A DNA stretch of 64,000 nucleotides from an uncultured Spirochaetota bacterium (GTDB lineage Bacteria > Spirochaetota > Brevinematia > Brevinematales > JAOACQ01), in assembly GCA_963835575.1 (NCBI GenBank), contig CAWIGG010000003.1, positions 224,001 through 288,000 of the forward strand, in the 5' to 3' direction. A program made the position numbers and the translations under genes. Every line of letters begins with the position of its first letter. Position 1 is the stretch's first letter. The notes below the pieces were generated by a model. That model saw nothing but the letters and a program-made list of their open reading frames with translations. It had not been told where the DNA came from and searched no databases. Shown in pieces: positions 11,798-61,598 of this stretch.

Positions 11798-11815
11798 ATT
11801 TCCTCCCGCTCACTC

Positions 11816-12517: not shown

Positions 12518-12528
12518 AATCCGCCACC

Positions 12529-13515: not shown

Positions 13516-13516
13516 A

Positions 13517-15286: not shown

Positions 15287-15490
15287 AAAACCCTCCTTTC
15301 TCTACTGCCCCCCCGCCGTTTAAACGCCCGCCAGAATCCGCGTCAATCCGTCTCATCCGCCTGATCCGTTTCTCTTAGCGTCCCTTCGCGTGCCTTGGCG
15401 GATACCCCCGGGTAGCCTGGGGCAATTGCCCCTGGCTACCCATTATTTACTTCGCCGTCTCTATCATACCGAAGGAGCACGTGCTCCCGC

Positions 15491-15745: not shown

Positions 15746-15790
15746 TGTACTTCCTCCGCTTTAAAATACCCGGCATCCGGAACCGCCGGC

Positions 15791-16534: not shown

Positions 16535-16662
16535 GCGTTAATCTCCTTTATTATTAAAATTTCAGTTATACCAAATTTTTATTGTGTTCTCTGTGCCTCC
16601 GCGTGAACTTTCCCGCCGTACCTTCTTCGCGCCTCTTCGCGTGCCTTAGCGGATACTTCCAT

Positions 16663-38133: not shown

Positions 38134-38336
38134 GGGGTTACCTTGGAATTCGGAAAAAATAGTACGCTAACGAAATATAAATCTATCCATCTTATTATAT
38201 AATAAGAACTTAAAAATATCATCAATTTCAGATGATAACCCAAATCTTATGATTTTATCGGATTCAGTAACTCTTTACCCGGTAATGATATTATAATTCT
38301 TAACGTACAAAAATATCCAAATTCCAAGGTAACCCC
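38134..38336. mobile_element. 203-bp Tn3-type MITE, copy A
   Basis: 38-bp IRs GGGGTTACCTTGGAATT...TACG(C/T)TAA(C/G). Confidence 0.85.
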
Positions 38337-38888
38337 ATGTACAGCGCCGTGATCCGGCTCATGGGTTTCTGCGGTCTCCGGGCCTCTGAAGTTATCGGAC
38401 ATGAAAAACGTGAGGGGGGCGGCCTCCGGATCCGGGACATTGATCTTACTTCCGGAGAAATTATAATCAGGGACGCGAAGGACACCAGGGCGAAAGAAAA
38501 ACGGCAGAAGAAGAACAAAACAGGGCGGGTAGTCTTCGCCCAAGGGGAAACCCTCGAGGCTATGCGGTCCTGGTGGACGAAAACAAGATCCTTCCTACCC
38601 GGCCAGGATCCGGAAGATTATTTTTTCTGTAACCGGTTCGGGGGAAAAATTAACAACAGCCAGCTGAGGAGAGCATTTCGTATATACGGTGCCAAGGCCG
38701 GGATCCCGCAAGAAAAGCGTCATCCCCATGCATTACGACATTCAGCCGGTACGCGGTTTTATAAGGTTACAAAAGACCTGCTTATAACTCAAAAAATACT
38801 CGGCCATGCAAACGCCCATGAAACCGTCCGTTATGCCCATGTATCCGGCGCTGACATCGAGGAAACGATGAAAAGGGTATTGGGGTAA
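38337..38888 (+). CDS. Tyrosine recombinase copy 1 (N-terminally shortened, in frame)
   Basis: GLRASE, HALRH, LGH, RY catalytic set. Confidence 0.85.
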   Translation: MYSAVIRLMGFCGLRASEVIGHEKREGGGLRIRDIDLTSGEIIIRDAKDTRAKEKRQKKNKTGRVVFAQGETLEAMRSWWTKTRSFLPGQDPEDYFFCNRFGGKINNSQLRRAFRIYGAKAGIPQEKRHPHALRHSAGTRFYKVTKDLLITQKILGHANAHETVRYAHVSGADIEETMKRVLG

Positions 38889-38899
38889 TTTGAACTGAC

Positions 38900-41014
38900 C
38901 TATTTGTCGAATTTAAATTTTTCATTTGAACTTATAGTCATTCCACTTTCCAGTAAATTTTTCAAAATATCTGTTAATTCAATACATCTACTAACACTAC
39001 ATATCCATCTCATAATGTTTTTATATTCAGATTCAAATTTAAGATCCATATACATTTCAAGTAGATATTTTTTATTTGGTTCAGTATAATCGGTTTTTAT
39101 TGCTACGCTATTATAATCTTTGATTGATAATGATATTTCGTTGATTATATATAATACCTAAATTCCCAAAGTAAAAATACCAAATGGGGCCCCAATCTGT
39201 TATAATATATTGCTTTACAAAACAACAGAAGGAGCACCCAAATGGTGAAAAACATCAAAGTTGGTTTTACGGCGCAGGATTTGAGCAGCGTGAGCGGGAT
39301 TTATCCCGTGCTGGTATTTTTGAAAAAGATTGGGTTCAATCAGTTGCTCAAAAAATTTATTCCAGCGCGGGAATATTGTAACCAGAAATTCTCGTTCGAG
39401 CAAATTATTACGGGAATCGTGTGCGCGCTGATGGCAGGGTATAACCGGATCAAGAAGGTCGAGAATTTTACTGAAGATCCATTGTTCCGGGCAGCTCTGG
39501 GCTTGAAAGGGCCGATCAGTGATTCTACGATCATCAAGCGGATTGAAAACGTTGGTATGAAAGAATCTTACGCGATGAATGAGTTGAACGGAAAGCTTTC
39601 CCGCAAAGTCCACGCGAAGTTCCGGGTAAAAACGAAAATCGTGGACTGCGATTCGACCGTCAAGACGGTTTACGGAAGCCAGGAAGGAGCGGCGGCAGGC
39701 TACAATCCGCATAAAAAGGGAGCGAAGAGCTATCATCCGCTTCTGGCATTCCTGAACAGCACAAGGGAATGTATTCTCTCCTATTTCAGGCCGGGCGACG
39801 CTTACACAGCGAATAACGCGCCTGAATTTATCCGGCACATTTACGGAATACTCCATACCGGCTGGAAAAAACTTGTGTTCCGGATGGACAGCGGATTTTT
39901 CGACGGAAGGATTTTCGATGTCATCGAAGAAATGAAAGGGGCTTTTTTTCTGGTCAAAGCCAAAATGAAAAACCTCGCGGCGTTTCTGGAAAACAGGGGT
40001 TGGACAGCGGTTCCGGATCGAAGCGGCTGGGAACAGGCGGAATTTGAGTACCGGGCGCATGGATGGAAACATGCGAGGCGGTTCATAGCTGTCAGAAAGC
40101 TGATCCGGATAGAAACGGAAGGGCTGGTATTCCCGAAAGCGGTTTATGACTATTTTTGCTATTGTACGAATATGCGTTTGAAACCTTGGCAGGGCCATAA
40201 ATTTTACGGTGACCGGGGTACGTGTGAAAACTGGATCGAAGCCGTGAAGCAGCAGATGTTCGCCGGGATGCTTCTGACGCAAGATTTCTGGGTGAATGAT
40301 TTTCTGTGGAGCTGCAGCGTGCTGGCGTATAACGTTGGAATCTGGATGCGGTATCTGGTTGACCGGAAAAGTCACCGGGAAGAACCGGAAACATTCCGGG
40401 CGTGGTTTATTCGGGTTGCGGGGAAAATCGTGAGACAGGGCCATCAGGTAAAACTGGTGTTGAGCCGTTATTTTGCGGATAAGGACCGGTGGCGGAAATT
40501 TTACTGCCACTTATGTGAGCTGCAGATATAGCGAGTTCCCAACCGGATGATGTGAAGGCCGCCACAAGGGTGTGTTGCGCCCGGAGCAGCGGAATTTGTG
40601 GATTTACGAGTATTCAGGCATCGCCAAGGCTTGTAATTGCAGCAGCCGCGAGACTGGGATGATAAACCGATGCCAAGCAGTGCCGCGCAAGGCTGATTTC
40701 AAGCGGAAATCGCGGAACTCTGGGAATTTAGGTAATACTTTATTTTTTGCAAAATCTAATGAATGTTCATAACCATATTTATCCAAGGTCATATTTTTTG
40801 GATACCCCATTATACGAAATAATTTCGGAATCTCTTTGTCATATTTCATATAAAGATAGTCAACCTTAATGTTGTCTGATTTATTGCCAAAAATTATAAA
40901 ATATTCATAATCCAACGTTGATTGGTTTATGGAAGTATCAGGAAGCTTTGCTATTATTATATATATAAATCCTAATAGCGGATGATAACCCCTTGATATA
41001 ATAAAATCACCCAT
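38900..41014 (-). pseudogene. Hypothetical gene split by IS1380
   Basis: Removing the IS and TSD restores KNKVLYIINEISL...KFDK-stop. Confidence 0.7.
39157..40732 (+). mobile_element. IS1380-family element (transposase 39242-40531)
   Basis: TIR CCTAAATTCCCA; 5-bp TSD TAATA; DCDST, YHPL, RMDSGF, RGTCENWI. Confidence 0.93.
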
Positions 41015-41067
41015 AATATCCTCTTATAATCATTTATTATTAGCACTTTTATAACTAATTGGGTTAC

Positions 41068-41259
41068 TTACTCTTCATCTTTTTTATGAATATCCATTTC
41101 CTCGCCCATTTTAATACTTCTAAGTGCGGATATCTGAGGTTTTACCGGAGGTTCAGGTTGCGGTTTAGTTTCTATCTTTGGAACTTTGTTATTCTGAGCC
41201 TGAGTATTTACAACTGGTTGCTGATCAGCTTTTAAAGGGGTTTTATCTTCATTTGATAT
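41068..41259 (-). CDS. Putative 63-aa Pro-rich peptide (ATA start or readthrough)
   Basis: Paralogous to 41269-41400. Confidence 0.45.
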   Translation of the reverse strand: MSNEDKTPLKADQQPVVNTQAQNNKVPKIETKPQPEPPVKPQISALRSIKMGEEMDIHKKDEE

Positions 41260-41268
41260 AAATAACCC

Positions 41269-41400
41269 CTAACGTCCACCCGGAACTTTATTAGTCTCGG
41301 GAGTATGTTTGCCTTCTTTAATGCTCCTAATCCCCGATGGAACTGGTTTTTGTGGTGGTGCATTTGTATTAATTTTAGGTTCCTTGTTATCGTTTGCCAT
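41269..41400 (-). CDS. 43-aa Pro-rich peptide
   Basis: AAGGAG SD plus ATG; MANDNKEPK...PPQKPVPSGIRSIKEG. Confidence 0.6.
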   Translation of the reverse strand: MANDNKEPKINTNAPPQKPVPSGIRSIKEGKHTPETNKVPGGR

Positions 41401-41411
41401 AATATAACTCC

Positions 41412-42065
41412 TTATTTTTTGTTTGCCGCCGCTGATATTTTGTTTGTAGCGGTGGGGGTTTCAAATTTTAAAATTTTATTTGTTATTTCAACTTTAGTAA
41501 TACTCTCTTTTGGATATTTAAAAAGCGAATATGAATAAAAACAATATGTAAAAAATATTAAAATCAGAGTAAACGCAATAAACACATGCGTCGTATAAAG
41601 ATACCCTGATTTTTCATCATTTGTCACCGTGTTTGCATCAACTGCATTAGTATAATAATTTATGAACAATTCGTCATCATCATTATTAATATTTTCTTCT
41701 TTCTGTGCGGTCGATAAATTATTGAAAAAGGGATCGTCGTAATAATTTTTAATATCATTTAAATCTTTAAGAATACTTGATGGCAAAGGAAGATATTTAT
41801 ATTCGTGACCAAGATAAAACTTATATAAGTAAAAGATTGATGCTAAAAATAAAGCAATACTTATTCCTAACAGAATTAGTGTAACAACCTCAAATTTACA
41901 ATTTAAAATTTTATCCAACAACCCTTGAGATATATAGATTAAAGTCGCCCCAGATATTGATAATAGGGTAATAGTTATATTTGACTGATTATTTAGGTCA
42001 TTTTTTCTGGTGAACTCAAAAGCGTATAATGATTTTAGCATTTCAGCAGTTTCATTACGATTCAT
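41412..42065 (-). CDS. Hypothetical three-TM membrane protein
   Basis: Two N-terminal and one C-terminal hydrophobic helices. Confidence 0.65.
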   Translation of the reverse strand: MNRNETAEMLKSLYAFEFTRKNDLNNQSNITITLLSISGATLIYISQGLLDKILNCKFEVVTLILLGISIALFLASIFYLYKFYLGHEYKYLPLPSSILKDLNDIKNYYDDPFFNNLSTAQKEENINNDDDELFINYYTNAVDANTVTNDEKSGYLYTTHVFIAFTLILIFFTYCFYSYSLFKYPKESITKVEITNKILKFETPTATNKISAAANKK

Positions 42066-42182
42066 AACGCCCCCATAAAAACAGTGATAAATTCTATGAT
42101 TAATACCAAATTTAATTATATGTTGTTAAATCAAGAATGTCAATCGGGTACGCAAGATGCCCCGCCTTGATAACTCCCTATA

Positions 42183-42220
42183 GGGGTCGGCTCACGAAAC
42201 GGAAATTTAACCACGTTAAG
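42183..42220 (+). mobile_element. Tn3-family 38-bp terminal repeat
   Basis: GGGGTCGGCTCACGAAACGGAAATTTAACCACGTTAAG. Confidence 0.8.
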
Positions 42221-42297
42221 GATTTTCAATGGGGGTAAGTTAGGCTGATCCTACGCCAGCCCCTCAGCCTGGTTACTCTGACCAAACTGTAAAATAA

Positions 42298-42374
42298 GTA
42301 CCGAAAATAACTTTACAATTCCGAAAGTCCCGGATATACTAAATTGAGTACCGAAAATACATTATTTTCGGTAC
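42298..42374. promoter_or_regulatory. Putative recombinase binding/crossover site
   Basis: GTACCGAAAATA direct repeat plus inverted pair GTACCGAAAA-TACATTA-TTTTCGGTAC. Confidence 0.6.
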
Positions 42375-42388
42375 ATGAGGCTATTTTA

Positions 42389-43021
42389 ATGGAAATGACT
42401 GTTTTCATGACTGACGATGAAATTACCAGGCTCCTGCGGTCATTCAACCCCAGGATGACGAACGGGATCATGTACAACGCCGTGATCCGGCTCATGGGTT
42501 TCTGCGGCCTCCGGGCTTCCGAAGTTATCGGACATGAAAAACGAGAGGGGGGCGGCCTCCGGATCCGGGACATTGATCTCACTTCCGGAGAAATTACAAT
42601 CCGGGACGCAAAGGACACCAGGGCGAAAGAAAAACGGCAGAAGAAGAACAAAACAGGGCGAGTAGTTTTCGCCCAGGGGGAAACCCTCGAGGCCATGCGC
42701 ACCTGGTGGACAAAAACAAGATCCTCCCTACCCGGCCAGGCTCCGGAAGATTATTTTTTCTGTAACCGGTTCGGGAGGAAAATAAACAACAGTCAGCTGA
42801 GGAGGGCTTTTCGTATATACGGGAACAAGGCCGGGATCCCGCAAGAAAAGCGGCATCCCCATGCATTACGTCATTCAGCCGGTACGAGGTTTTACAAGGT
42901 TACAAAAGACCTGCTTATAACACAAAAAATACTCGGTCATGCAAACGCTCATGAAACCGTCCGTTATGCCCATGTGTCCGGCGCTGACATCGAGGAAACG
43001 ATGAAAAGGGTATTGGGATAA
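42389..43021 (+). CDS. Tyrosine recombinase copy 2 (full length, 210 aa)
   Basis: GAGG SD; FMTDDEITRLL N-terminus; R-H-R-H-Y catalytic residues. Confidence 0.9.
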   Translation: MEMTVFMTDDEITRLLRSFNPRMTNGIMYNAVIRLMGFCGLRASEVIGHEKREGGGLRIRDIDLTSGEITIRDAKDTRAKEKRQKKNKTGRVVFAQGETLEAMRTWWTKTRSSLPGQAPEDYFFCNRFGRKINNSQLRRAFRIYGNKAGIPQEKRHPHALRHSAGTRFYKVTKDLLITQKILGHANAHETVRYAHVSGADIEETMKRVLG

Positions 43022-43062
43022 TTTAAAGGCTCTGGATAAGCCGTTAAGGGGGGGGGGAGAAA

Positions 43063-43524
43063 ATGGATATTTTTGAAGCGGCTCGCAATGGCAATGTTGC
43101 GTTTATTAAGAGTTATAAAGGTGATATCAACGCGGTGAATAAAGATAGCTGGACGGCTTTGATGTGTGCAGTCTACCAGGGCAATCTGGACGCTGTCAAA
43201 GCATTGATCGAGGCTAAGGCTAATGTCAGCGCTGTGGATATAAACGGCAGGACGGCTTTGCATGAGGCGGCTCTGTGGAGGTTCGCTGATGCGGTTAAGG
43301 TATTGATTGAGGCAAAAGCCGATGTCAACGCTGTGGATAAATGGGGCTGGACACCTTTGTTTGAGGCAGCTCGCATTGGTCAAACAGACACGGTTAAAGT
43401 ATTGATCGAGGCAAAAGCCAATGTTAACGCGAAAGATACAAACGGTAAGACGGCTTTGATGCTCGCGACTGTATGTGAGCGCATGGACGTGGTTACAGAA
43501 TTAAAAAAAGCTGGCGCGGAATAG
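43063..43524 (+). CDS. Small ankyrin-repeat protein (ank1)
   Basis: 33-aa TAL/TPL repeats. Confidence 0.9.
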   Translation: MDIFEAARNGNVAFIKSYKGDINAVNKDSWTALMCAVYQGNLDAVKALIEAKANVSAVDINGRTALHEAALWRFADAVKVLIEAKADVNAVDKWGWTPLFEAARIGQTDTVKVLIEAKANVNAKDTNGKTALMLATVCERMDVVTELKKAGAE

Positions 43525-43610
43525 ACGGTTTCTGGACCAGAGTGACGGACTCAAAACGTGAATCCTACGTAATTCTAACAAGGGATTCCTTTTAAATAAC
43601 ACTTTGACGA

Positions 43611-43640
43611 TTGACATTTACATCTCAAAACAGGTAAGAT
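43611..43640 (+). promoter_or_regulatory. Sigma70-like promoter for ank2
   Basis: TTGACA-18 nt-TAAGAT. Confidence 0.5.
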
Positions 43641-43673
43641 TATTGAGTCTTTGAAATTGAAGAAGGTTAGGGA

Positions 43674-44135
43674 ATGGGTATTTTTGAAGCGGCTCGCAAT
43701 GGCGATGTTGCTTTTATTAAGAGTTATAAAGGAGATATCAACATCGTGGATAATGTCGGTATGACGGCTTTGATGTGGGCGACTAACTATGGCCACACGG
43801 ACGCGATTAAAGCATTGATCAAGGCCAAGGCTAATTTAAACGCGACGGCTAAAGACGGCTCGACGGCTTTAATGATAGCGGCCTCCTATAGGCATACGGA
43901 TGCGGTTAAAGTTCTGATCAAGGCCGGGGCCAATTTAAACGCAGCAGATGAAAGGGGTTTGACGGCTTTGATGGATGCGGTCCTTGAGGGAACAACGGAC
44001 TCTGTTGAAGTATTGATCGCAGCTAAGGCCGATGTCAACATGGCGGATATTTACAGCAATACGGCTTTGCTAATTGCAAAAGCAAATAAATATAAAGATA
44101 TAATCAAGCTCTTGAAAGAAGCAGAGGCAAAATAA
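43674..44135 (+). CDS. Small ankyrin-repeat protein (ank2)
   Basis: Same N-cap, ankyrin repeats. Confidence 0.9.
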   Translation: MGIFEAARNGDVAFIKSYKGDINIVDNVGMTALMWATNYGHTDAIKALIKAKANLNATAKDGSTALMIAASYRHTDAVKVLIKAGANLNAADERGLTALMDAVLEGTTDSVEVLIAAKADVNMADIYSNTALLIAKANKYKDIIKLLKEAEAK

Positions 44136-44182
44136 ACGATATGTTAAACGGTAAAGTCTCTTACCGGGTAGAAGGTTAGAAA

Positions 44183-44446
44183 ATGGACATTTATGAAGCG
44201 GCTCGCAATGGCGATGTTGCGTTTATTAAGAGTTATAAAGGCGATGTCAACGTCGTGGATAAATGGGGCTGGACGGCTTTGTTTGAGGCGGCTTGCAATG
44301 GTCACACGGCCGCGGTTAAAGTATTGATAGAGGCAAAGGCCAATGTCAACGTGGAGGATACAAACGGTAAGACGGCTTTGATGCTTGCGACCAGATGTGG
44401 GTACATGGATGTGGTTACAGAATTAAAAAAGGCTGGCGCTAAATAG
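44183..44446 (+). CDS. Minimal ankyrin-repeat protein (ank3)
   Basis: N-cap, one internal repeat, C-cap. Confidence 0.85.
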   Translation: MDIYEAARNGDVAFIKSYKGDVNVVDKWGWTALFEAACNGHTAAVKVLIEAKANVNVEDTNGKTALMLATRCGYMDVVTELKKAGAK

Positions 44447-44616
44447 ACAGATCCTGGGGAAGAGCCGGGATTCTGGCTGTGGACTGTTAAAAAAACCCTA
44501 CCCGTGAAATCTTGGCAATTCTAACAGGGTATTGCGTGAAAAAGCCATTAAAAGTTGCAAAATTTTGATGGGAGAATATAATTACCCGCAAAATTGAAAG
44601 TGTGGGAGGTTAGAAT

Positions 44617-45411
44617 ATGGGTGATCTTAATTCAGTGGACAAAAATAATAAAATGGTTAAAATTCCAGGTGGTACTTTCCAGATGTATTCCCAAAAGGTA
44701 ACAGTCTCATCATTTTCTATTTCAAAATTTGATATCAAGCAGGGCGAATGGGTAGAGATTATGGGAGATAATCCATCACATTTTAATGATAATCTTAATA
44801 ATCCCGTTGAAAATGTTTCATGGTATGATGCGGTTGTTTATTGCAATAAAAGGAGCATAAAAGAGGGCCTGACCCCGGTGTACTCAATCAGTGGAAGTAC
44901 CGATCCTTCCTCCTGGGGAGCAGTGCCGACTTCAATAAATTCCATCTGGAATACTGTTACCGCTGACTGGTTTACCAACGGATACCGGTTGCCTACAGAA
45001 ATGGAATGGATGTGGGCGGCCATGGGGGCCGATACGGCGAATCCGGGGCAGGTTAATCTCACCGGCTACAATAAAGTCTTTGCGGGGAGCACAGGGGCTA
45101 ATGGTATTAATGACTATGCCTGGACCAACGGCAATAGCGGAGGAACCACGCATCCGGTAGGTACTAAATTGACGAACGAGCTTGGCCTGTATAACATGAG
45201 CGGGAATGTGTGGCAGTGGTGCTGGGACTGGTATAGGAATTATCCGATGGATTCGCAAACGGATTACCGTGGAACGGCTTCGGGCACGCGCCGCGTCTTA
45301 CACGGCGGCAGTTGGTACGACGGATCGTCGTACGCTACGGTTGCCTATCGCGCCGACCGCAACCCGTTTAACCAGCTCAACAATATCGGGTTCCGTGTTG
45401 TGCGCCCCTGA
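44617..45411 (+). CDS. FGE-sulfatase/C-type-lectin-fold protein, probable DGR target
   Basis: PVENVSWYDA, RLPTEMEW, GLYNMSGNVWQW, GGSW...NIGFRVVRP. Confidence 0.88.
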   Translation: MGDLNSVDKNNKMVKIPGGTFQMYSQKVTVSSFSISKFDIKQGEWVEIMGDNPSHFNDNLNNPVENVSWYDAVVYCNKRSIKEGLTPVYSISGSTDPSSWGAVPTSINSIWNTVTADWFTNGYRLPTEMEWMWAAMGADTANPGQVNLTGYNKVFAGSTGANGINDYAWTNGNSGGTTHPVGTKLTNELGLYNMSGNVWQWCWDWYRNYPMDSQTDYRGTASGTRRVLHGGSWYDGSSYATVAYRADRNPFNQLNNIGFRVVRP

Positions 45412-45626
45412 GTTCTGCAGAAATCGAGTCCCTTTAGCCGCGTAGGCGTCAAGCCTGAGCGGGTTAAGGGACTCGTAAGCGAAATACACGTCGCGTTTGC
45501 GCGGCGTCGCCTTATATTGTATTGGATATAGATTTGCCATTGTTAACGCAATTTGTATCGTTTCCTTGTGGGCTAACTGGGAACACCGGAAGGTGCTTTT
45601 TTAAGCATCATACCGTAAAAATACCC

Positions 45627-46177
45627 ATGTACAACGCCGTGATCCGGCTCATGGGTTTCTGCGGCCTCCGGGCTTCCGAAGTCATCGGACATGAAAAACG
45701 AGAGGGCGGAGGACTCCGGATCCGGGATATAAACCTTACTTCCGGAGAAATTACGATCCGGGACGCAAAGGACACCAGGGTGAAAGAAAAACGGCAGAAG
45801 AAGAATAAAACAGGCCGGGTAGTTTTCGCTCAGGGAGAAACCCTCGAGGCCATGCGGACCTGGTGGATAAAAATAAGGTCCTCTCTCTCCGGCCAGGCTC
45901 CGGAAGATTATTTTTTCTGCAACCGGTTCGGGGGAAAATAAACAACAGCCAGTTGCGGAGGGCTTTTCGTATATACGGGAACAAGGCCGGGATCCCGCAA
46001 GAAAAGCGGCATCCCCATGCATTACGTCATTCGGCCGGCACGAGGTTTAATAAGGTTACAAAAGACCTGCTTATAACACAAAAAATTCTCGGACATGCTA
46101 ACGCCCATGAAACCGTTCGTTATGCCCATGTGTCCGGCGCCGATATCGAGGAAACGATGAAAAGGGTATTGGGGTAA
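45627..46177 (+). pseudogene. Tyrosine recombinase copy 3 (-1 frameshift near 45935)
   Basis: Near-identical to copies 1 and 2, split over two frames. Confidence 0.85.
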
Positions 46178-46211
46178 TTTGAAATCCCGGATAAGCCGTT
46201 AAGGGGGGGGG

Positions 46212-46265
46212 ATGGGTATTTTTGAAGCGGCTCGCAATGGCGATGTTGCGTTTATTCAGAGTTAT
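46212..46265 (+). pseudogene. Ankyrin N-cap fragment
   Basis: ATGGGTATTTTTGAAGCGGCTCGCAATGGCGATGTTGCGTTTATT then unrelated DNA. Confidence 0.75.
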
Positions 46266-46369
46266 TGGTTATAATCCTATAGGTACTGACAAAAAATTGA
46301 AGCAGAAAGGCCAAGATAGAATTATTTGTCGGAAAGTTAACGGATTCAGGTATTTATTAGGGGGTATTT

Positions 46370-46708
46370 ATGATTTACACAGAAAAAGAAGTTCAGGATA
46401 TTCTAAAAAATTATTTTGGTAATAGAATTAATGAAATCTTTAAAACCGATGGTTTTAGTTTATTTTTAAAGGAGTATTACAGCAATGGAATCGGAAATAA
46501 TCCTCTAATTCTTTTTTTAAATAAAAATTATATGGAGCTTGGAATTCAAGAATATTCTTTTGCTCCCCCCAAATACACTAATTTAAATGACATAGATTTG
46601 TCTAAATGGGAATTTCCCAGAATTCATCCTATAGAAAACTGGATGTATATGAAGGAAAGTAAGATAACTAAAATAATTGGTGATCATGAAGTCATTAGGA
46701 CAAAATAA
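46370..46708 (+). CDS. Hypothetical protein
   Basis: 112-aa ORF with AGGGGG upstream. Confidence 0.55.
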   Translation: MIYTEKEVQDILKNYFGNRINEIFKTDGFSLFLKEYYSNGIGNNPLILFLNKNYMELGIQEYSFAPPKYTNLNDIDLSKWEFPRIHPIENWMYMKESKITKIIGDHEVIRTK

Positions 46709-46801
46709 AGACCGGGAAAATCACCTGGTCAAAGCTAATTGTCATATCAAACAGCGAGGTAATTTATGTCTATTTTCCAGGAAAGAAGTTGATTTAACGG
46801 T

Positions 46802-47200
46802 ATGATTGATTTAAAAAAGGCGGTTCTGTTTTCAAGTGGTGATTCTAATATTTCTTTTTTAGCAAAATGTTTGGCAGATGAGGTGAGAGCTGATTTAGTG
46901 CCTTTTATTAAAATAAATAACTGTGATTTTAATAAATATAATTTAATATTCATTGGTTTAAAAATTGAGGAAGGGAAATTAGATCCATATTATAAGAGAA
47001 TTAAATTTAAGAATAAAGATGTTCAAATATTTTATTTTTACCCGTCTGATACAAACGCATCATTTGATGCACTCGAAAAAAAACTTGTTAATAATATGAT
47101 TAAAGGTGATAAGAACTTTTATACTCCTGATTTTGATAGAAAGAAATTATGTGATAATATTCAAACTTGGGGTACTTTAGTAAGTCAATACACAGTTTAA
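46802..47200 (+). CDS. Degenerate flavodoxin-like protein
   Basis: AVLFSSGDSNISFLAKCLA...YNLIFIG pattern. Confidence 0.45.
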   Translation: MIDLKKAVLFSSGDSNISFLAKCLADEVRADLVPFIKINNCDFNKYNLIFIGLKIEEGKLDPYYKRIKFKNKDVQIFYFYPSDTNASFDALEKKLVNNMIKGDKNFYTPDFDRKKLCDNIQTWGTLVSQYTV

Positions 47201-47219
47201 AAATAAATGGGGTTAGAAA

Positions 47220-47603
47220 ATGGACGTTTTTGAAGCGGCTCGCAATGGCAAAGTTGCTTTTATTAAGAGTTATAAAGGCGATGTCAACGCCGTGACTAAA
47301 GACGGCTGGACGGCTTTGATGGAAGCGGCAGGGGAAGGGCGCATGAACATTGTCAAAGCATTGATCGCGGCGAAGGCCGACGTCAACGCGGCGGCTAAAG
47401 ACGGCTGGGCGGCTTTAATGTATGCGGCTTCAGAAGGGCAAACGAGTACAGTTAAAGCATTGATCGAGGCAGGGGCCAATATCAACGCAGCGAATAATAA
47501 AGGCGAGACGGCTTTATCGCTTGCTATTGATAATAAGCATACAGGAATTGCCAAGCTCTTGAAAGAGGGGGCAACGCAGAATTCGGAGAAAATTGTACTC
47601 TAA
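47220..47603 (+). CDS. Small ankyrin-repeat protein (ank4)
   Basis: Same N-cap, two internal repeats. Confidence 0.9.
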   Translation: MDVFEAARNGKVAFIKSYKGDVNAVTKDGWTALMEAAGEGRMNIVKALIAAKADVNAAAKDGWAALMYAASEGQTSTVKALIEAGANINAANNKGETALSLAIDNKHTGIAKLLKEGATQNSEKIVL

Positions 47604-47640
47604 GCCGTAGCCGATACCCCGGCCCATTGTTTGTCGGATT

Positions 47641-47870
47641 CTAATTTTTCTTCCCATTAACGGTATCTTTCATAGCTCTTCCTGGCTTGAAACATGCAGA
47701 TTTTCTGGCCGGGACTTTTACTTCTTCTCCAGTTTTAGGGTTTCTTGCAACCCTGGCTTTCCTTTGCTTTATGCCGAAAGTTCCGAATCCACGAATCTCG
47801 ATACGATTTCCAGCACCCGTATTCTCAATGGAATCCTTCAATTTATCAATGAATTTAGTGAACGAATAAG
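47641..47870 (-). pseudogene. HU/IHF-family gene lacking its N-terminal helices
   Basis: IEIRGFGTF...ARNPKTGEEVKVP...FKPG. Confidence 0.75.
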
Positions 47871-48046
47871 GGATGCGCTGTCAAGGACGGTCAATGTGAG
47901 GCCTTCAAAGGACACAACAGGCCCCCCCTTGACAGGACTTATTTAAAGCCCCTACAAAGGGTATATTTCAGGCCTATGATTGAAAATAACAACGCCATAA
48001 CAACGAGGTTCTAACCCTCACTATGTACAAAGTTACCTAAGGGCCA

Positions 48047-48337
48047 TTATAAAACAACAGCGATAATGTCGTCGCCGGAAAGGATAAGGTAATCCGCTTC
48101 TTCAATCTTGATCTGTGTTCCGGCGTACTTATCATAAATTACTTCATCCCCTACTTTCACTTCGACAGGAATAAGTTCTCCCTTGTCGTTCTTCTTTCCA
48201 GGGCCTATAGCCTCAATAACTCCGCGCTGCGTTTTTTCTTCCTGCGCGGTTTGAGGGATATAAATACCGCCTTTAGTTTTTTCTTCAGTCTTATTTACTT
48301 TGATTAAAACCCTGTTACTCAATGGTTTGACCTTCAT
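48047..48337 (-). CDS. groES: Co-chaperonin GroES
   Basis: KPLSNRV...TKGGIYIP...KYAGT. Confidence 0.95.
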   Translation of the reverse strand: MKVKPLSNRVLIKVNKTEEKTKGGIYIPQTAQEEKTQRGVIEAIGPGKKNDKGELIPVEVKVGDEVIYDKYAGTQIKIEEADYLILSGDDIIAVVL

Positions 48338-48378
48338 ATATCGCCTCCAATATAATTATTATTTTAATAAAAATAAGC

Positions 48379-50013
48379 TTAATACATATCACCCATTCCG
48401 CCGCCGCCTCCCGGAAGCATCATCGGGGCTTTTCCATTTTCAGGCTTATCGGTGATCAGCACTTCGGCTATCAAAAGCAGGCCTGCGATGGAGGCTGCGT
48501 TTTGAAGGGCGATCCTTCCGACTTTGGCAGGATCTATGATACCCGCTTTAACCATATCAACCCATTCGCCTGTTAAAGCATTATAACCGATCCCTTCTTT
48601 TGATTCCTTGGCTTTATAAACGACAACAGATCCGTCGATTCCGGCGTTGTCGGCTATCAGGCGCATAGGCGATTCGAGAGACTGGTAAATAATGTTTATT
48701 CCGACTTTCTCATCCGGGTTATCAGCTTCAATTTTAGCAACGGCTTTCTGCGCCTTGAGCATCGCAAGTCCTCCACCGGGAATGATGCCTTCTTCTATCG
48801 CGGCCCTGGTGGCGGAAAGTGCGTCTTCAACGCGAGCTTTCTTTTCTTTTAATTCAACTTCGGTAGCGGCACCAACTTTAATAATGGCAACGCCTCCGGA
48901 AAGTTTTGCGAGCCTTTCCTGGAGTTTTTCCTTGTCGTAATCTGAAGTGGTATCTTCTATCTGTTTTTTAATCTGCTTGATTCTTGCCTGTATGTCTTCT
49001 TTTTTACCGGCCCCGTCGATGATGACTGTGTTTTCTTTATCGATTTTGACTCTCCTGGCCTTTCCGAGATCGTCCAGGGTTGTGTTCTCAAGCTTCATGC
49101 CTTTTTCTTCTGAAATTACGTTGGCTTTTGTAAGAACAGCTATATCTTCAAGCATGGCTTTCCTTCTGTCTCCGAATGCGGGAGCTTTCACAGCCACGCT
49201 GTTTAATGTCCCTCTCAGCTTGTTGACAATTAAAGTGGCCAGAGCTTCTCCTTCGATATCTTCAGCGATAATAAGAAGTGTTTTACCGCTCTGGGCGATT
49301 TTCTCAAGAAGCGGGACAATCTCTTTCAGAGATGATATCTTCTTGTCATAAACCAGAATGAAAGGCTCTTCAAGTTCCGCTATCATGCTTTCAGCGTTTG
49401 TAACCATGTAAGCTGACAGATAACCTCTGTCGAACTGCATGCCTTCTACAACATCCACTAAAGTGTCCATGACCTTGGATTCTTCTACAGTTATAACCCC
49501 GTCTTTGCCTACCTTGTCCATGGCATCTGCGATATATTCGCCGATTGTCTGGTCATTATTAGCTGAAATTGACGCCACGTTGCGGATCTCTTCCCTGCCT
49601 TCAACCTTTTTTGACATCTTTTTGATCTCTTCTACAACGACTGCCACGGCTTTATCAATGCCTTTCTTGATAAGTGTGGGATTGCTGCCAGCTGTAACAT
49701 TCTTAAACCCTTCCTTAATAATTGCATGAGCGAAAACAGTGGCTGTAGTAGTGCCGTCACCAGCTATATCATTTGTTTTTGTCGCAACTTCCTTAACAAG
49801 CTGCGCTCCCATGTTCTCAAAGCGATCATCAAGTTCGATTTCCTTGGCTACGGTAACGCCGTCTTTAGTTATAGTCGGAGCACCGAATTTCTTGTCAATA
49901 ACTACATTACGACCTCTCGGGCCGAGCGTTGCACCAACCGCTTTTGAAAGTTTTTCAACACCGATTAGTAATTTTTGATGTGCTTCACTTGAAAACATCA
50001 AATCTTTTGCCAT
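48379..50013 (-). CDS. groEL: Chaperonin GroEL
   Basis: [17 protein letters not shown] tail; AGGAG before MAKD. Confidence 0.97.
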
Positions 50014-50394
50014 ACGATCATCTCCTATATTATTATTTAAAAATCCAACGTTGTTTAAAAAATTTAAAAGAAATATAATCAAATTTCTGTGTCATATACT
50101 TACATTTTCTCAAATTAATGTTTTCCATAGTGTCAAAAATCGATTGATTTGTTTGATTAATCCAATTAAACTTTGTAGTGCGAATTTTTGCAGGACAAAA
50201 TTAAAGGAAAGGTAAGTTGTGTTTTACTGTATTCGCATTAAGTGAGCAAGTATAGTCAGTATTTTCATTATTGTCAACAGGTCGAATTGCTTCATAATAA
50301 ATCCACTCAAAACGGAATCGTTGCCTCAAATAAAAATCCACTCCAAATTATACTAAATCCAGTTCAAAACTGCAATGGACTAGAGGATGAAATT

Positions 50395-50433
50395 GGGGTT
50401 ACCTTGGAAAAGGGAAAAAATAGTACGTCTAAG
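50395..50433 (+). mobile_element. Isolated Tn3-type end related to the 203-bp MITE
   Basis: GGGGTTACCTTGGAAAAGGGAAAAAATAGTACGTCTAAG. Confidence 0.75.
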
Positions 50434-50967
50434 GATTTTTAGAGTTAACAACATCATTCCCTATAAATATTTATAAAAATGCGTCAGATTGAAGTACACG
50501 GCCCTATGGGAGCGAAGCTGCCACCAGGGGCAAAGTAAGCTCCTCAGCCTGGCCGACCTGGTACAGCTCCAGGGAGATATCGCCTTGGTACTCGCCCAGG
50601 CTTCCGGCAGATCGGCGGAGTGCATTCGGTCGGATGAAAGCCTCATCGGGCATCGAAAGACGGCCTCACATTGACCTTATTGAGGCTCTATTTTCATAAC
50701 AGCCCTTAAAAACGGCTCTTCCCCGGACATGTCGCCATTTCCGGCCATCGCCGCCGATCGGCGAATTGATGCATCGATCGAAAAGATAGCGAAACAAGAC
50801 AATTGGGCTGATATAAGGATTCGTATAAATTATATAAATCACTTGGTTATAATTAGCAACAAGGGAATAATCATTGTAAATATTATTACTTTCGGCTTGA
50901 ATATTTGGAGAAAATGTCGTATAATTGTTTATGAAGATGTCGTAATATTATAAATGAGGTTATTATT

Positions 50968-51381
50968 ATGCCGATAGGCAATACTTTAGAAAAAAGGATA
51001 CAATACAGGATTAAAAGGAATAAAGCTTCTGTGTTTTTGCTTTCGGATTTTGCTGATTTATCAGATAAAGATCAGATTATGCGCGCATTAAAAAAGCTAA
51101 TAAACAAAAAGCTTGTTGTCAAAGTAGGGCAAGGTCTTTATACCCGAGCAAGAATATCAACAATAACGAATAATCCTATTCCTGAAAAGGATATTATATC
51201 TGTTGCCAAAGAAGCTTTAAAAAAACTTAATGTAAAAGTTGTACCATCTAATTACGATATAATGTACGAAACAGGGAAATCAACCCAGGTTCCAACTGGA
51301 AGGGTTATAACTGTTAAAAGTCGAGTGTCAAGAAAAATTGGGTTTAATGGAAACTTTATAAAATATGCCAAAGCAAATTGA
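50968..51381 (+). CDS. AbiEi/DUF6088-like antitoxin
   Basis: wHTH with KVGQGLY, STQVP; overlaps the toxin gene. Confidence 0.8.
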   Translation: MPIGNTLEKRIQYRIKRNKASVFLLSDFADLSDKDQIMRALKKLINKKLVVKVGQGLYTRARISTITNNPIPEKDIISVAKEALKKLNVKVVPSNYDIMYETGKSTQVPTGRVITVKSRVSRKIGFNGNFIKYAKAN

Positions 51382-52339
51382 AAAAATTGTTTATGAAGAT
51401 ATTGCCGCTGAACTTGGCGTTAAGCCTTCTTTTATTGAAAAAGATTATTACGCCGTACATATACTAAATGAATTATCAAAGATAGAATATGAAAACGCAA
51501 AGTTAATATTTTCAGGCGGAACTTGCTTATCAAAGGGATACAAGCTTATAAAAAGATTTTCTGAAGACCTTGATTTTAGAATAGATACAACTGTGCCTTT
51601 TACAAGGCCGCAAAGAAGAGAGTTTAGAGAATTTATAATATCAAAAATTAAAGACCTTCCAGACTTAGAGTATTTAGAAGAATCTTTAGACATAAAAAAC
51701 AATAGTGAATTATTCGGGTTTAATGTTAAATATCCGAAATTGTTTACTTTTAGTGGTGGATTAAGAAACGATTTAAAATTGGAATTTACTTTTAAAAACT
51801 TGCAACTCCCCACTAATACATGTCCAATTGAAACCTTTGTATCAAAATATACTGGTAAAACTGAAATAACAAAGATGAATTGTATTTCCCCTGTTGAAAT
51901 CGGAGCAGACAAATTAAGTGCTTTGATGTGGCGGGTTGATATAAAAAACAGAACAAAGCCACAAGGTCATGTCGCAAATGATGCAACCATCATAAGACAT
52001 TTACACGATTTATCTGCTTTAGAAAAGCTTCTATTAAACGATGTTTTTATAAAGTGTGCTGAGAAGTCTTTTGAAACCGATAAAGGTCGTAGTGGTTCTA
52101 ATGATCACATTATTTTAGCTGAATATGCAAAAAGGACTTTAGATAAGTTAAAAACAGATAGTATTTATGCCAAAGAGTACAAGGAATTTGTTGATGCTTT
52201 GTCTTATTCCAAAGAATCTGAGACGATTGATTTTAAAAGGGCTTTATCATCTTTTGAGAGAATTGTTGATTTTATCAAAATGGATATTAATAAAAATCAT
52301 GCAATTAAAAAAGACAATAGCCGTGGGATGGGAATGTAA
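51365..52339 (+). CDS. AbiEii-family nucleotidyltransferase toxin (type IV TA)
   Basis: IEKDY, FSGGTCLSK, RFSEDLDF, RHLHD. Confidence 0.88.
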   Translation: MPKQIEKIVYEDIAAELGVKPSFIEKDYYAVHILNELSKIEYENAKLIFSGGTCLSKGYKLIKRFSEDLDFRIDTTVPFTRPQRREFREFIISKIKDLPDLEYLEESLDIKNNSELFGFNVKYPKLFTFSGGLRNDLKLEFTFKNLQLPTNTCPIETFVSKYTGKTEITKMNCISPVEIGADKLSALMWRVDIKNRTKPQGHVANDATIIRHLHDLSALEKLLLNDVFIKCAEKSFETDKGRSGSNDHIILAEYAKRTLDKLKTDSIYAKEYKEFVDALSYSKESETIDFKRALSSFERIVDFIKMDINKNHAIKKDNSRGMGM

Positions 52340-52462
52340 ATAATATTAGGGTTTACCGAAATCCAGCCCAGCTCCTCAGCCCGGCTGTTTTTTCCGCCGC
52401 CGGCCGGCCACTGCAGATTCCCCCGCCTTTAGTTCGGTCATTACCTCGATGGCGGTCTTAAT

Positions 52463-52665
52463 GGGGTTACCTTGGAATTCGGAAAAAATAGTACGCTAAC
52501 GAAATATAAACCTATCCATCTTATTATATAATAAGAACTTAAAAATATCATCAATTTCAGATGATAACCCAAATCTTATGATTTTATCGGATTCAGTAAC
52601 TCTTTACCCGGTAATGATATTATAATTCTTAACGTACAAAAATATCCAAATTCCAAGGTAACCCC
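52463..52665. mobile_element. 203-bp Tn3-type MITE, copy B
   Basis: Nearly identical to 38134-38336. Confidence 0.85.
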
Positions 52666-53221
52666 ATGTACAGCGCCGTGATCCGGCTCATGGGTTTCTG
52701 CGGCCTCCGGGCTTCCGAAGTCATCGGACATGAAAAACGTGAGGGGGGCGGCCTCCGGATCCGGGACATTGATCTTACTTCCGGAGAAATTATAATCAGG
52801 GACGCAAAGGACACCAGGGTGAAAGAAAAACGGCAGAAGAAGAATAAAACAGGCCGGGTAGTTTTCGCTCAGGGAGAAACCCTCGAGGCCATGCGGATCT
52901 GGTGGACAAAAATAAGGTCCTCTCTCTCCGGCCAGGCTCCGGAAGATTATTTTTTTCTGCAACCGGTTTGGGGGAAAAATTAACAACAGCCAGCTGAGGA
53001 GAGCATTTCGTATATACGGTGCCAAGGCCGGGATCCCGCAAGAAAAGCGTCATCCCCATGTATTACGTCATTCGGCCGGCACGAGGTTTTATAAAGTTAC
53101 AAAAGACCTGCTTATAACTCAAAAAATACTCGGCCATGCGAACGCCCATGAAACCGTTCGTTATGCCCATGTCTCCGGCGCTGACATCGAGGAAACGATG
53201 AAAAAGGTATTGAGGAACTAA
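52666..53221 (+). pseudogene. Tyrosine recombinase copy 4 (+1 T frameshift near 52950)
   Basis: T7 in place of T6; HVLRH variant. Confidence 0.85.
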
Positions 53222-53334
53222 TCCCCACTGCCGATCCGTCCGGGATATCCAGGAGATCTTTCCAGGACGATATCGACCTGGTTGCCAGATTCCCGGACGG
53301 ATCCCCTCACAGGGTTAAAAAGACGGCCATACAA

Positions 53335-53858
53335 CTACTTTGTTTTTTTATTCATCCAAGATTTAATATTTAAAAAATCAATTTTAAAAAACTTTAAAAT
53401 CTCAAATATTAATACGAAAATACCAACAATGTCAATAACAATACCCAATACTTTATAATTATATATGTATATTAATATGCCGACTGCAATTATGATACAA
53501 GTTATTGCTATAATAAGTATTTTGCGGAAAAAAGTAAGCACTTTACTAAAAAACAAGTTACGCTTTTCTCTTTTATCCGATTTCTTTTTTTCATCTGATC
53601 TATATTTATCAAGTTCCAATTTTTGAGTTTGTAATTCTCTTTTTAATATTTCGATTTCCTCTTCATTTTTCTGGGCTTTATATTTAAATAATTCTTGTTC
53701 TTGAATATATTTGTCCAAACTTTTTTCGGTGATAGAACTTAAAGTATTATTTAAATCATATTCAGTAATATCTTCAGGTTTTTTTGTCTGTTTTCTAAGA
53801 GCTACAATATTAGCTTTTGCTTGTTCTTCAGACATATTACCTTTTTTATATTCATCCT
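53335..53858 (-). pseudogene. 3' remnant of a coiled-coil/2-TM protein gene, apparently truncated by a MITE
   Basis: Frame is open up to the MITE end; no clear SD. Confidence 0.5.
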
Positions 53859-54109
53859 GGGGTCCCCGCAGAATTCGGGAAATTTAGTACGCTAAGGGAT
53901 AAAATATTGCTGTAAGGGCCGTGTTTGCTATATTTTTGGCACATTGCTATATCCATATTTCAGCAACAAGATACCCGGTTTTATCCCTTAGATTCGGCGA
54001 TTTTACTATGTTTTTAGGGCTATTTCTCCCCTCCATGTTGCTATTTTAGTAGATTTTAGCAACATGCTATCGTTAGCGTGCTGTTTTGCCCGAATTCTGC
54101 GTTCACCCC
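53859..54109. mobile_element. 251-bp Tn3-type MITE, second family
   Basis: IRs GGGGTCCCCGCAGAATTCGGGAAATTTAGTACGCTAAG / GGGGTGAACGCAGAATTCGGGCAAAACAGCACGCTAAC. Confidence 0.8.
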
Positions 54110-55271
54110 TTTCAGGACAATGGATTGACAGGCTAAGAAAACAGGTTCCCATGAGATATCTTGTTCTTGATATGGATAGTTCTGTAAGCGAAACCTATGG
54201 CAGACAGGATGGGACAGCATATAACGGACATTTTGGATGTACTTGTTATCATCCTCTTTTTTGTTTCAACCAGTTTGGAGATGTCGAGTTTGCACTGCTG
54301 AGGGAAGGTAATGTACACAGCGCTAAGGACTGGAAAACAGTACTGGAACCAATAGTTTCCCGTTATCGTAATTGAAAGTTTCCACATTACTTCAGGGGTG
54401 ATGCCGGCTTTGCCAAGCCGGAGATTTATGAGTACCTGGAATCAGAACACTTCAGGTATGCGATCCGCTTGCCAGCCAATGACGTCCTGCATCGTGAAAT
54501 CGATCATCTCATGACAAGGCCGGTAGGACGGCCATCACATGCACCAGTTGTCTGGTATCATGAATTCCAGTACAAGGCTGCAGTATGGAATCGGAATCGC
54601 CGGGTAATAGCAAAAGTTGAATGGCACCAGGGGGAACTATTCCCCCGTGTTGGATTTATTGTAACAAATCTTCGATCCAAAAAGAGGAAAGTTGTCCGTT
54701 TTTACAATATGAGAGGAACAGCGGAACAATGGATCAAGGAGGGCAAGAATGCGGTAAAGTGGACACGTTTATCGTGCCATGACTTTATCGATAATCATGT
54801 CCGGCTCCAGTTATTTGTTCTTGCTTACAATCTTGGGAACTTCTTTCGAAAGTCAGCATTACCCAGGTCAATGCGACATTGGACAATGACAACTCTCAGG
54901 GAGAAACTGATCAAAATCGGCGCTAAAATCGTACGACATGCCCGATATATAGTCTTTCAGATGGCCGAAGTTGCGGTTTCGCAAGAGATGTTCGCCGCTA
55001 TTCTTGGAAGAATTGGCAGACTACGGCTCCTTTTTGGAGTTGGCGAATAACAAGATTAAAAACAGAAAAAAGATAATTTATACAAGGGATTACTGTCGGG
55101 TTTTTGTAAAAAGGTTATCAGAAAATTGCCCGAAATCTGATATTATAAAAACTATGAAGGAATTTCATGAAAAGAAAACCTGAAATTGCCATTGACAAGG
55201 TTATTTTGCGGTTTTATAATAAGAAAATCTCTCAAAAGGGAGAATACTGTAAGTCATTTGGGAAATATCGG
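54110..55271 (+). pseudogene. 5'-truncated IS1380-family element with an internal stop; right end near 55271
   Basis: LDMDSS, CYHPLF, RGDAGF, RGTAEQWIKEGK; TGA at 54373. Confidence 0.85.
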
Positions 55272-61373: not shown

Positions 61374-61578
61374 GGGGTCCCGCCAACATTTCCGACAAAA
61401 CCCCCTCTAAGTGATTTTCTTAGCATACTATTTTTCCCGAATTCTGCGTCAATTATTTCTTTGATAATAGGTTGCCTTCCCTTTCCCCATTCTTTTATAA
61501 GACCCAAACCGATTAATTTATCAAAATCTTTTGCTCTGGTTGGGGTCAGCTCACGAAACGGGAAAAATCGTAGCTAAG
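61374..61578. mobile_element. Cluster of Tn3-type ends (61374-61411 +, partial 61419-61449 -, 61542-61578 +)
   Basis: GGGG...CTAAG pattern; 61542 resembles the end at 42183. Confidence 0.65.
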
Positions 61579-61598
61579 GTTTAAAGTTACTTAAGATA

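Follow-up and report, generated by a model that had tools for sequence, protein, structure and literature searches.

We analysed a 64,000-nt window (G000:C3:224001-288000; positions below are those of the window unless a contig is named) of the metagenome-assembled genome G000 (4.39 Mb in 7 contigs, completeness 94%), in which four copies of a small tyrosine recombinase segment, Tn3-type ends and genes for ankyrin-repeat proteins lie close together. What we see is probably the patchwork that Tn3-family elements have left behind, set in an island of mobile elements and defence genes of a Brevinematales-like spirochaete, and not a dedicated cassette system. Because only one recombinase copy is whole and only that copy has a recombination site, we regard the locus as wreckage rather than as a machine that shuffles genes for binding proteins. 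If this holds, the region consists mainly of ordinary mobile-element debris and does not make a new system. The kinds of element found here, which are Tn3-family transposons, their miniature derivatives and resolution of the type formed by TnpI and its internal recombination site (IRS), are all known, and the family of mini-resolvases to which the recombinase belongs is little described. A recombinase of ~207 amino acids that consists of the catalytic domain only and has a conserved, co-varying three-part site is a clear example worth keeping. Worth keeping, too, are the tyrosine recombinase of a complete Tn3-family transposon in the same genome and the purifying selection seen on the truncated copies; jointly, the three make the possibility of a further class of Tn3-family resolution modules directly testable.

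Four copies of a tyrosine recombinase segment

Repeat finding, a four-way alignment and self-BLAST detected a ~550-bp segment with a Phage_integrase domain at four places within 15 kb, always on the + strand. The sole whole copy is copy 2 (gene 42389-43021, shared segment 42469-43021), which encodes 210 amino acids. Copy 1 (38337-38888) keeps an open frame of 183 amino acids and lacks the first 27 codons together with the upstream site. Copy 3 (45627-46177) is 5'-truncated and has a 1-nt deletion, and behind it come a linker and the start of an ankyrin gene, as a fragment of 54-65 nt (46201-46265). Copy 4 (52666-53215) is 5'-truncated as well, is frameshifted by one additional T and is a mosaic of copy 1-like and copy 3-like tracts. 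The three truncated copies share one 5' breakpoint, which falls on an identical nucleotide after the first 27 codons, and neither the core of the site nor its arms is present at any of them. Two of the three are frameshifted, both times in a homopolymer run. The translations retain the catalytic residues in all four copies; by the truncation, the structural model loses helix 9-17 and the beginning of helix 24-39, along with the family-invariant residues E11, L15, R22 and G26.

An earlier note on this DNA, made from its letters, had described four near-identical recombinase genes on the + strand within 15 kb. The number, the strand and the span are as it said, but the copies are 87-95% identical overall and just one of them is full length. 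Identity is 93.4% between copies 1 and 2, 89.5% between 1 and 3, 91.7% between 2 and 3, 92.0% between 2 and 4 and 93.1% between 3 and 4, and it reaches 94.9% between copies 1 and 4 when the element preceding each of them (TIME-A and TIME-A', see below) is counted in. Ninety of the 553 aligned columns vary among the four copies, and each copy has flanks of its own. When the protein of copy 2 was searched against the whole genome, all matches above 31% identity, 6 of the 15 listed, fell in the four places of the window, the next best reaching 31%; the segment is thus absent from the rest of the 4.39 Mb.

The mosaic structure of copy 4 is clear in the alignment: it is copy 1-like in columns 1-133 and 316-385 and copy 3-like in columns 155-295 and 409-493, giving a four-gamete pattern. 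Homologous exchange between the copies is therefore indicated, and the pattern points to ordinary homologous recombination or gene conversion.

At copies 1 and 4, the outer end of a 203-bp Tn3-derived inverted-repeat miniature element (TIME) directly abuts the ATG, the junction being the same in both, and the TIME end contributes an AAGG 7 nt upstream of the ATG of copy 1. Upstream of copy 3, only CCC, which are the last 3 nt, and a 13/15 match are common with the TIME end. On this ground a degenerate TIME ahead of copy 3 is at most a candidate; BLAST gave no upstream homology. Downstream, the homology between copies 2 and 3 (648 bp in all, 91.7% identity) continues through a linker that ends in GGATAAGCCGTTAAG and a G tract (43022-43062, + strand, with G10; repeated after copy 3 at 46178-46211 with G9) and on into an ankyrin gene, of which it covers the first ~54 nt, just as the earlier note had reported. 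The G10 (43048-43057) and G9 (46203-46211) tracts stand immediately before the ankyrin starts and are two of the five G/C runs of at least 9 nt in the genome, G10 being the longest; such tracts may be prone to slippage.

Outside the window, an independent metagenome contig, L069, contains one whole copy of the gene (97% identical; the stretch homologous to that of copy 2 is 736 bp) and also a recombinase fragment (columns 234-400), with the outer end of a TIME-A-type repeat at a distance of 23-26 nt.

Two further features were seen around the copies. Directly after copy 4 there is a perfect 13-bp inverted repeat, GATCCGTCCGGGA and TCCCGGACGGATC (53233-53245 and 53291-53303), whose halves are 45 bp apart. 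A GC-rich element of ~20-40 nt with repeated CAGCTC occurs upstream of the recombinase site or beside TIME-A copies (42256-42275, 50538-50572, 52363-52385; L069 2626-2665). A circular permutation of the unit made of GC-rich segments, site and recombinase was also considered and was dropped, the local similarity between the DNA after copy 4 and that before the site of L069 being weak (score 46) and not significant in BLAST.

The whole copy and its candidate recombination site

The protein of copy 2 matches Pfam Phage_integrase with an E value of 3e-28. R42, K75, H158, R161, H184 and Y193, the RKHRH pentad and the tyrosine nucleophile, are invariant in an alignment of 12 sequences. In profile, sequence and fold comparisons, the protein matched the catalytic domain only of XerA, XerC/D and XerH; the best profile matches, to XerA, XerC and XerD, all stayed under their cut-offs, and no cut-off of a curated family was reached. 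Judged from its sequence, it is a Xer-like tyrosine recombinase made of the catalytic domain alone, without the N-terminal core-binding domain. Among the 29 database proteins listed, 13 score E 2.5e-37 or better against copy 2; they have 167-218 amino acids, most of them ~207. The same listing includes a subfamily at 41-49% identity, with the motif GHEKREGGGLRI, and the closest protein is labelled as coming from a Brevinematales bacterium. More distant relatives of ~190 amino acids, ~30% identical, occur on plasmids and on one phage-plasmid and are labelled merely as recombinases. Those matches on Bacillus plasmids that were inspected are other recombinases and not TnpI.

The protein resembles the FimB/FimE invertases in its length of ~200 amino acids and in having the catalytic domain only; the NCBIfam invertase models match it (E 8e-15 and 8e-14), and a plasmid-borne fimB is ~32% identical. 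Unlike at the fim switch, no inverted pair of sites surrounds a switchable segment here, and the single core site of the genome is accompanied by a direct accessory arm.

Three loci of the recombinase could be compared together with their surrounding DNA: the window, L069 and the congeneric genome G020, whose gene is 68% identical. Otherwise, the relatives in the genome collection are only 23-41% identical, and of the 80 loci kept from the metagenome collection, L069 is close and the other 79 lie at 27-34%.

Directly ahead of copy 2 there is a candidate IRS-like site (42285-42375, + strand). Its three parts span 42297-42374: a direct arm, AGTACCGAAAATA, at 42297 and, 50 bp on, a core formed by two inverted arms, GTACCGAAAA-TACATTA-TTTTCGGTAC, which is a 10-7-10 palindrome (42348-42374). 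The stretch that separates core and direct arm contains a promoter-like match (42312-42340). The arm motif, with up to one mismatch allowed, occurs three times in the window, each time within 42297-42375. The core occurs once in the window, where 0.01 occurrences would be expected, and once in the genome; the sole other near match, at C3:25358, was rejected as a second site, as it falls within a flavodoxin-like coding sequence. Since the genome has a single core site, there is neither a partner for recombination nor a substrate for an exchange of cassettes.

The same three-part layout with the 50-bp spacing was found in L069, where the 7-bp spacer differs, and in G020, where GTACCG is replaced by GTAGCG in each of the three arms. 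Our best evidence for the arms as binding sites of the protein is this concerted change. We infer that copy 2 and the upstream site form a compact TnpI/IRS-like module for resolution, in which the protein would bind the one direct and two inverted arms just ahead of its own gene. It would recombine two directly repeated sites, such as those of transposition cointegrates or of replicon dimers. The position of the promoter-like match inside the site would allow autoregulation, the protein repressing its own promoter.

In the accessible text of PMC2847244, the IRS of TnpI consists of an inverted-repeat core (IR1-IR2) and direct-repeat (DR) accessory arms. As far as the modules of Tn4430, Tn5401 and TnBth4 are described in such sources, the arrangement at copy 2 is like theirs: the gene lies behind its own site with an inverted core and a direct arm, a promoter is inside the site and a terminal repeat is just outside. 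The likeness concerns the layout. TnpI has 284 amino acids. Copy 2 has ~210 and no N-terminal DNA-binding domain, one direct arm and not two is visible at its site, and no transposase gene (tnpA) follows. TnpI is named only for Tn4430, Tn5401 and TnBth4 in the accessible text of PMC7157771, and in that of PMC8138268 its single mention is within the reference list. In the text of the papers searched there is no description of a ~207-amino-acid, catalytic-domain-only tyrosine recombinase with a three-part site; supplementary files of the cited papers may list more TnpI-type elements.

Tn3-type ends, miniature elements and a complete transposon

Eleven Tn3-type ends of two sequence types are found within 23.4 kb of the window. 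The earlier note had placed such ends closely ahead of three recombinase copies, and they are indeed there (GGGG...ACGYTAA): at 38134-38170 and 38300-38336 before copy 1, at 42183-42220 before copy 2, and at 52463-52499 and 52629-52665 before copy 4. The end before copy 2 is a terminal inverted repeat of the second type (GGGGTCGGCTCACGAAACGG...CACGTTAAG, 38 nt, + strand), and its inner end faces copy 2, 168 bp before the start of the gene. Relatives of this repeat are at 61542-61579, at C3:297.8 kb, at C5:280.5 kb and inside a transposon on contig C2. Two further ends, 61419-61456 (- strand) and 61542-61579 (+ strand), stand just ahead of a histidine-kinase gene.

Four elements consist of inverted Tn3-type ends with less than 500 bp and no gene between them, and we call them TIMEs. 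TIME-A (38134-38336, + strand, 203 bp) has two 37-nt inverted ends, 81% complementary, around 129 bp. TIME-A' (52463-52665, + strand, 203 bp) is 99.5% identical to it, the two differing at 1 of 203 positions, and makes the same junction with the recombinase. TIME-B (53859-54110, + strand, 252 bp) interrupts a transposase gene of an insertion sequence. TIME-C (C3:297556-297805, 250 bp) has an interior ~85% like that of TIME-A and different ends. There is also a partial TIME-A (50394-50480, + strand), a left end of ~71% identity, which is followed by a GC-rich 35-nt element (50538-50572, + strand) that occurs upstream of the recombinase site in L069 too.

The genome has one complete Tn3-family transposon of 10.7 kb (C2:439007-449689; L019 7008-17690), with terminal repeats at both ends and a perfect 5-bp duplication, TTATT. 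It carries the sole Tn3 transposase gene of the genome (C2:440648-443614; the only PF01526 match, C2:442385). Besides the 988-amino-acid TnpA, which is 72-74% identical to TnAs1/Tn21-type plasmid transposases, its cargo includes a Gp49/helix-turn-helix (HTH) toxin-antitoxin pair, a sequence like the repeat before copy 2, a site made of repeated GCTAAAAT arms and a palindrome, a tyrosine recombinase of 197 amino acids that is 23% identical to copy 2, and TetR/LolA-like passengers. Its order of toxin-antitoxin pair, site, recombinase and tnpA is that of Tn5401 and TnBth4, for which the accessible text of PMC7157771 gives the layout '<T <A res tnpI> tnpA>'. Where the transposon on C2 encodes its 197-amino-acid tyrosine recombinase, ahead of tnpA, a close relative on a plasmid has a serine resolvase; the annotation in the Methylomonas relative reads serine 'recombinase family protein', and the corresponding neighbour of tnpA in the second relative that was inspected carries no annotation.

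Both ends of this transposon have the same inner 15 nt, AAAATAGTACGCTAA, as the TIME-A ends, and over 33 nt the interior of TIME-B matches, at 91% identity, the site that precedes the transposon's small recombinase. The miniature elements are therefore derivatives that the TnpA encoded on C2 could move, and the transposon could serve as their source of transposase. The elements are like known TIMEs in being non-coding, 203-252 bp long and provided with Tn3-type ends that match an autonomous element of the same genome, and in the piece of a resolution site inside TIME-B; two direct copies of TIME-A bracketing 14 kb also recall TIME-COMP. They differ from known TIMEs in lacking 5-bp duplications, in the fusion of TIME-A to a truncated recombinase, and in their host, a spirochaete and not an enterobacterium or a pseudomonad. 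Thus, the part of the earlier note that had invoked Tn3-family elements, a TnpI-like resolvase and miniature inverted-repeat transposable elements agrees well with the two types of end, the TIMEs, the IRS-like site beside a terminal repeat and the transposon with its small tyrosine recombinase.

The copy 2 element itself is incomplete. No Tn3-type TnpA was found for it, tblastn of the TnpA from C2 against the window giving nothing better than E 1.5, and no co-linear tnpA lies downstream of copy 2, where there are ankyrin genes instead. With the module 168 bp inside a Tn3 terminal repeat, the element resembles the left end of a TnpI-type transposon whose transposase would have been lost since. 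The ankyrin and FGE-sulfatase genes behind copy 2, which are GC-richer, would be passengers; copies 1, 3 and 4 would be fragments, the first and the last of them joined to a 203-bp TIME, and tracts would later have been swapped among them by homologous recombination.

Readings of the locus, its cargo and its surroundings

Several observations weigh against this reconstruction of Tn3-family wreckage. The homology of the module stops ~12 nt or less from the stop codon in four different contexts, which the reconstruction does not account for. Only a left end of the copy 2 element is found: neither the window nor the genome has a matching right-hand (inverted) repeat of the ~38-bp type (GGGG...TAAG), and because the right end is missing the element shows no 5-bp target duplication. 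No terminal repeat lies ahead of the site in L069 or G020. Such duplications flank none of the four TIMEs either (TAATA/ATGTA, TTAAT/ATGTA, ATCCT/TTTCA and CCATA/TATTA). At the loci of distant relatives (23-34% identity), a Tn3 transposase was found in 0 of 128 within the DNA fetched, so that the link to Tn3 comes from this genome only. Lastly, all pairs of copies differ mainly at synonymous sites, with a synonymous divergence (dS) of 0.23-0.47 and a ratio of non-synonymous to synonymous divergence (omega) of 0.03-0.12; even between truncated copies, the values are dS 0.47 and omega 0.07 (copies 1 and 3) and omega 0.10 (copies 1 and 4). Substitutions private to one copy are synonymous and non-synonymous at 8:2 in copy 1 (p 2e-4) and 7:3 in copy 3 (p 2e-3), where chance would make 23% synonymous. 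Old, dead fragments should not show such a bias.

In copy 4 the private substitutions are 1 synonymous to 3 non-synonymous; pooled over the three truncated copies, 16 of 24 are synonymous (p 8e-6). Given this bias and the near-identity of TIME-A and TIME-A', the copies have been under selection for most of their separate history. A recent truncation that was spread by recombination, variation imported from functional copies, or a functional form of 183 amino acids could each be the cause.

The last of these leads to an alternative that we consider doubtful, namely that the TIME-fused recombinase of 183 amino acids is a maintained functional gene, which acts in trans as a partner, competitor or regulator of a resolvase, and that the unit of TIME and short recombinase spreads. 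Purifying selection is seen in all pairs, truncated against truncated included, and the private changes of copies 1 and 3 are mainly synonymous. The frame of copy 1 is open and could be translated from the ATG abutting the TIME, using the AAGG of the latter; the catalytic residues are kept, and the left limit of the repeat shared by copies 1 and 4 is the exact outer end of the TIME. On the other hand, two of the three truncated copies are frameshifted and the private changes of copy 4 do not follow the pattern. The form would lack helix 9-17, part of helix 24-39 and four family-invariant residues. TIME-A has no promoter-like match on the + strand, no binding site lies near, and a 183-amino-acid form with the same start was not found among the 29 listed database relatives.

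Unlikely to a similar degree is an explanation in which the two direct repeats of TIME-A and recombinase (38134-38885 and 52463-53215) are scars of replicative or one-ended Tn3-type transposition, that is, of an unresolved fusion with a circular donor of ~14 kb that carried copy 2, the ankyrin and FGE-sulfatase genes, copy 3, groESL and the AbiE pair. One-ended transposition of Tn21/Tn1721-type elements yields such products. The repeats start exactly at the outer end of the TIME, and beyond the almost identical TIMEs the next 140 nt differ at 4 clustered positions. The DNA that they bracket is, over much of its length, GC-richer than its surroundings and contains a second GroEL, a second HDOD neighbour and a toxin-antitoxin pair, and the transposon on C2 could provide the transposase. 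However, the whole block is not flanked by a 5-bp duplication (TAATA on the left, AACTA/ATGTA-type on the right); a search for target duplications that flank any of the TIMEs, 47567-54110 or 38134-53215 found none. The remaining recombinase sequence differs by 7-11%, which would require later gene conversion, and no genes for replication or partition were seen in the bracketed DNA.

It is quite improbable, in our view, that Tn3-type ends seek out the recombinase module ('res hunting' by a TIME) and that selection keeps the TIME-fused short recombinases. The idea derives from the junctions between a Tn3-type end and the module, which are of four kinds in two organisms: an outer end directly at codon 28 (in copies 1 and 4 and probably in copy 3), an outer end 23-26 nt from gene column 234 (L069), an inner end that lies 168 bp ahead of copy 2, and a possible degenerate end starting at the stop codons of copies 2 and 3. 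If it were true, the locus would be a recombination hub that couples a resolution module with the ends of miniature transposons, and new genes such as the ankyrins would be captured beside it.

The proposal of the earlier note, a non-autonomous platform of recombinase and miniature elements that amplifies and shuffles ankyrin and C-type-lectin genes as a diversity-generating or defence cassette system, is very unlikely. In its favour, copies 2 and 3 share the linker and the ankyrin start, G tracts precede the ankyrin starts, the four ankyrin genes keep a start of ~60 nt at 93-94% identity, and the surroundings are a defence and mobile-element island. The platform would nevertheless have to work with a single core site in the genome and with three of four copies that lack both the site and the first 27 codons. 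A recombinase followed by ankyrin genes was found in 0 of the 2 other loci, a HEPN gene following in L069 and unrelated genes in G020, and many ankyrin genes stand elsewhere in the genome without the recombinase. A diversity-generating retroelement does not fit either: of the 7 RVT_1 (reverse transcriptase) matches in the genome, 0 are on contig C3, and the FGE-sulfatase gene has no template repeat, its 3' 220 nt matching only the 3' ends of its paralogues (74% and 67%), so that no template/variable repeat pair is seen at its 3' end. The arrangement resembles integrons in having a tyrosine recombinase with an adjacent site, then small unrelated genes, with toxin-antitoxin pairs nearby. Integron-integrase models, however, cover only residues 131-200 and score far under their cut-offs (TIGR02249 gives 53.7 bits, residues 131-198, against a cut-off of 265), no attC-like repeated palindromes were found in the repeat search, and, unlike integron cassettes, the ankyrin and FGE-sulfatase genes have promoter-like sequences of their own.

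An assembly artefact in which one gene was falsely multiplied or joined chimerically, which the earlier note had named as a possible refutation, is extremely improbable: the genome is a 7-contig metagenome assembly of 94% completeness and the frameshifts are known from the assembly alone, but the copies have substitutions and flanks of their own, L069 independently shows a whole copy and a fragment beside a Tn3-type end, and long genes of the window are intact.

We return to the mobile-element patchwork for its remaining contents. Three small ankyrin-repeat genes of 153, 153 and 87 amino acids (43063-44446, + strand) follow copy 2 and its linker, and then comes a gene for a protein of 264 amino acids with an FGE-sulfatase domain, a C-type-lectin-like fold (44617-45411, + strand). 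After copy 3, its linker and the ankyrin-start fragment, there are two unknown open reading frames and a fourth ankyrin gene (47220-47603, + strand), in which a solo Tn3-type end (47567-47603) takes the place of the last codons. The 5' block of the ankyrin genes, ~60 nt, is present in five copies, only in the window (43052-43116, 43663-43727, 44172-44236, 46201-46265 and 47209-47273), and it is 93-94% identical, compared with 56-79% for the remainder of the genes. It spans the ribosome-binding site and the first 18 codons and includes a 7-bp hairpin with a GCGA/GCAA loop that was flagged in a terminator scan; gene conversion or a constraint at the RNA level could be behind its conservation.

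Between the solo end at 47567 and the partial TIME-A at 50394, genes for HU, GroES and GroEL (47641-50082, - strand) form a second set in the genome; its GroEL shares 86% identity with the one encoded at C2:1525224, and a single copy is present in each of three congeneric genomes. An AbiEi-like (DUF6088) and AbiEii nucleotidyltransferase toxin-antitoxin pair (50968-52339, + strand) lies between the partial TIME-A and TIME-A'. Farther to the left, between copies 1 and 2, a DDE_Tnp_1_4 insertion-sequence transposase of 429 amino acids is encoded at 39242-40531 (+ strand), and the end of its element is multi-copy in the genome.

The surroundings form a mobile-element and defence island with type I-B cas genes, five further kinds of insertion-sequence transposase, the AbiE pair and an HDOD gene. 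The type I-B-like cas operon (7919-17415; cas1, cas4, cas3, cas5, cas7, cas8b/TM1802 and cas6) adjoins insertion sequences at 20-35 kb with DDE_Tnp_1_6, IS21, IS66 and two Mutator/IS256-type transposases. Scanning the region with Rfam and for tRNAs gave no matches, and contig C3 has no match to ParB, which was looked for as a check for a plasmid nature. Two public peat-metagenome runs, stored as contigs, contain 7% of the sampled words of the window, and their contigs map to it as short low-depth pieces with a few short-sided joints among the ankyrin repeats. A palindrome, GTTCCAAAAAC-(4-7 nt)-GTTTTTGGAAC, is spread over all large contigs in more than 25 copies, counted as loose matches, for example at G000:C2:169715, C4:428298 and C5:73340.

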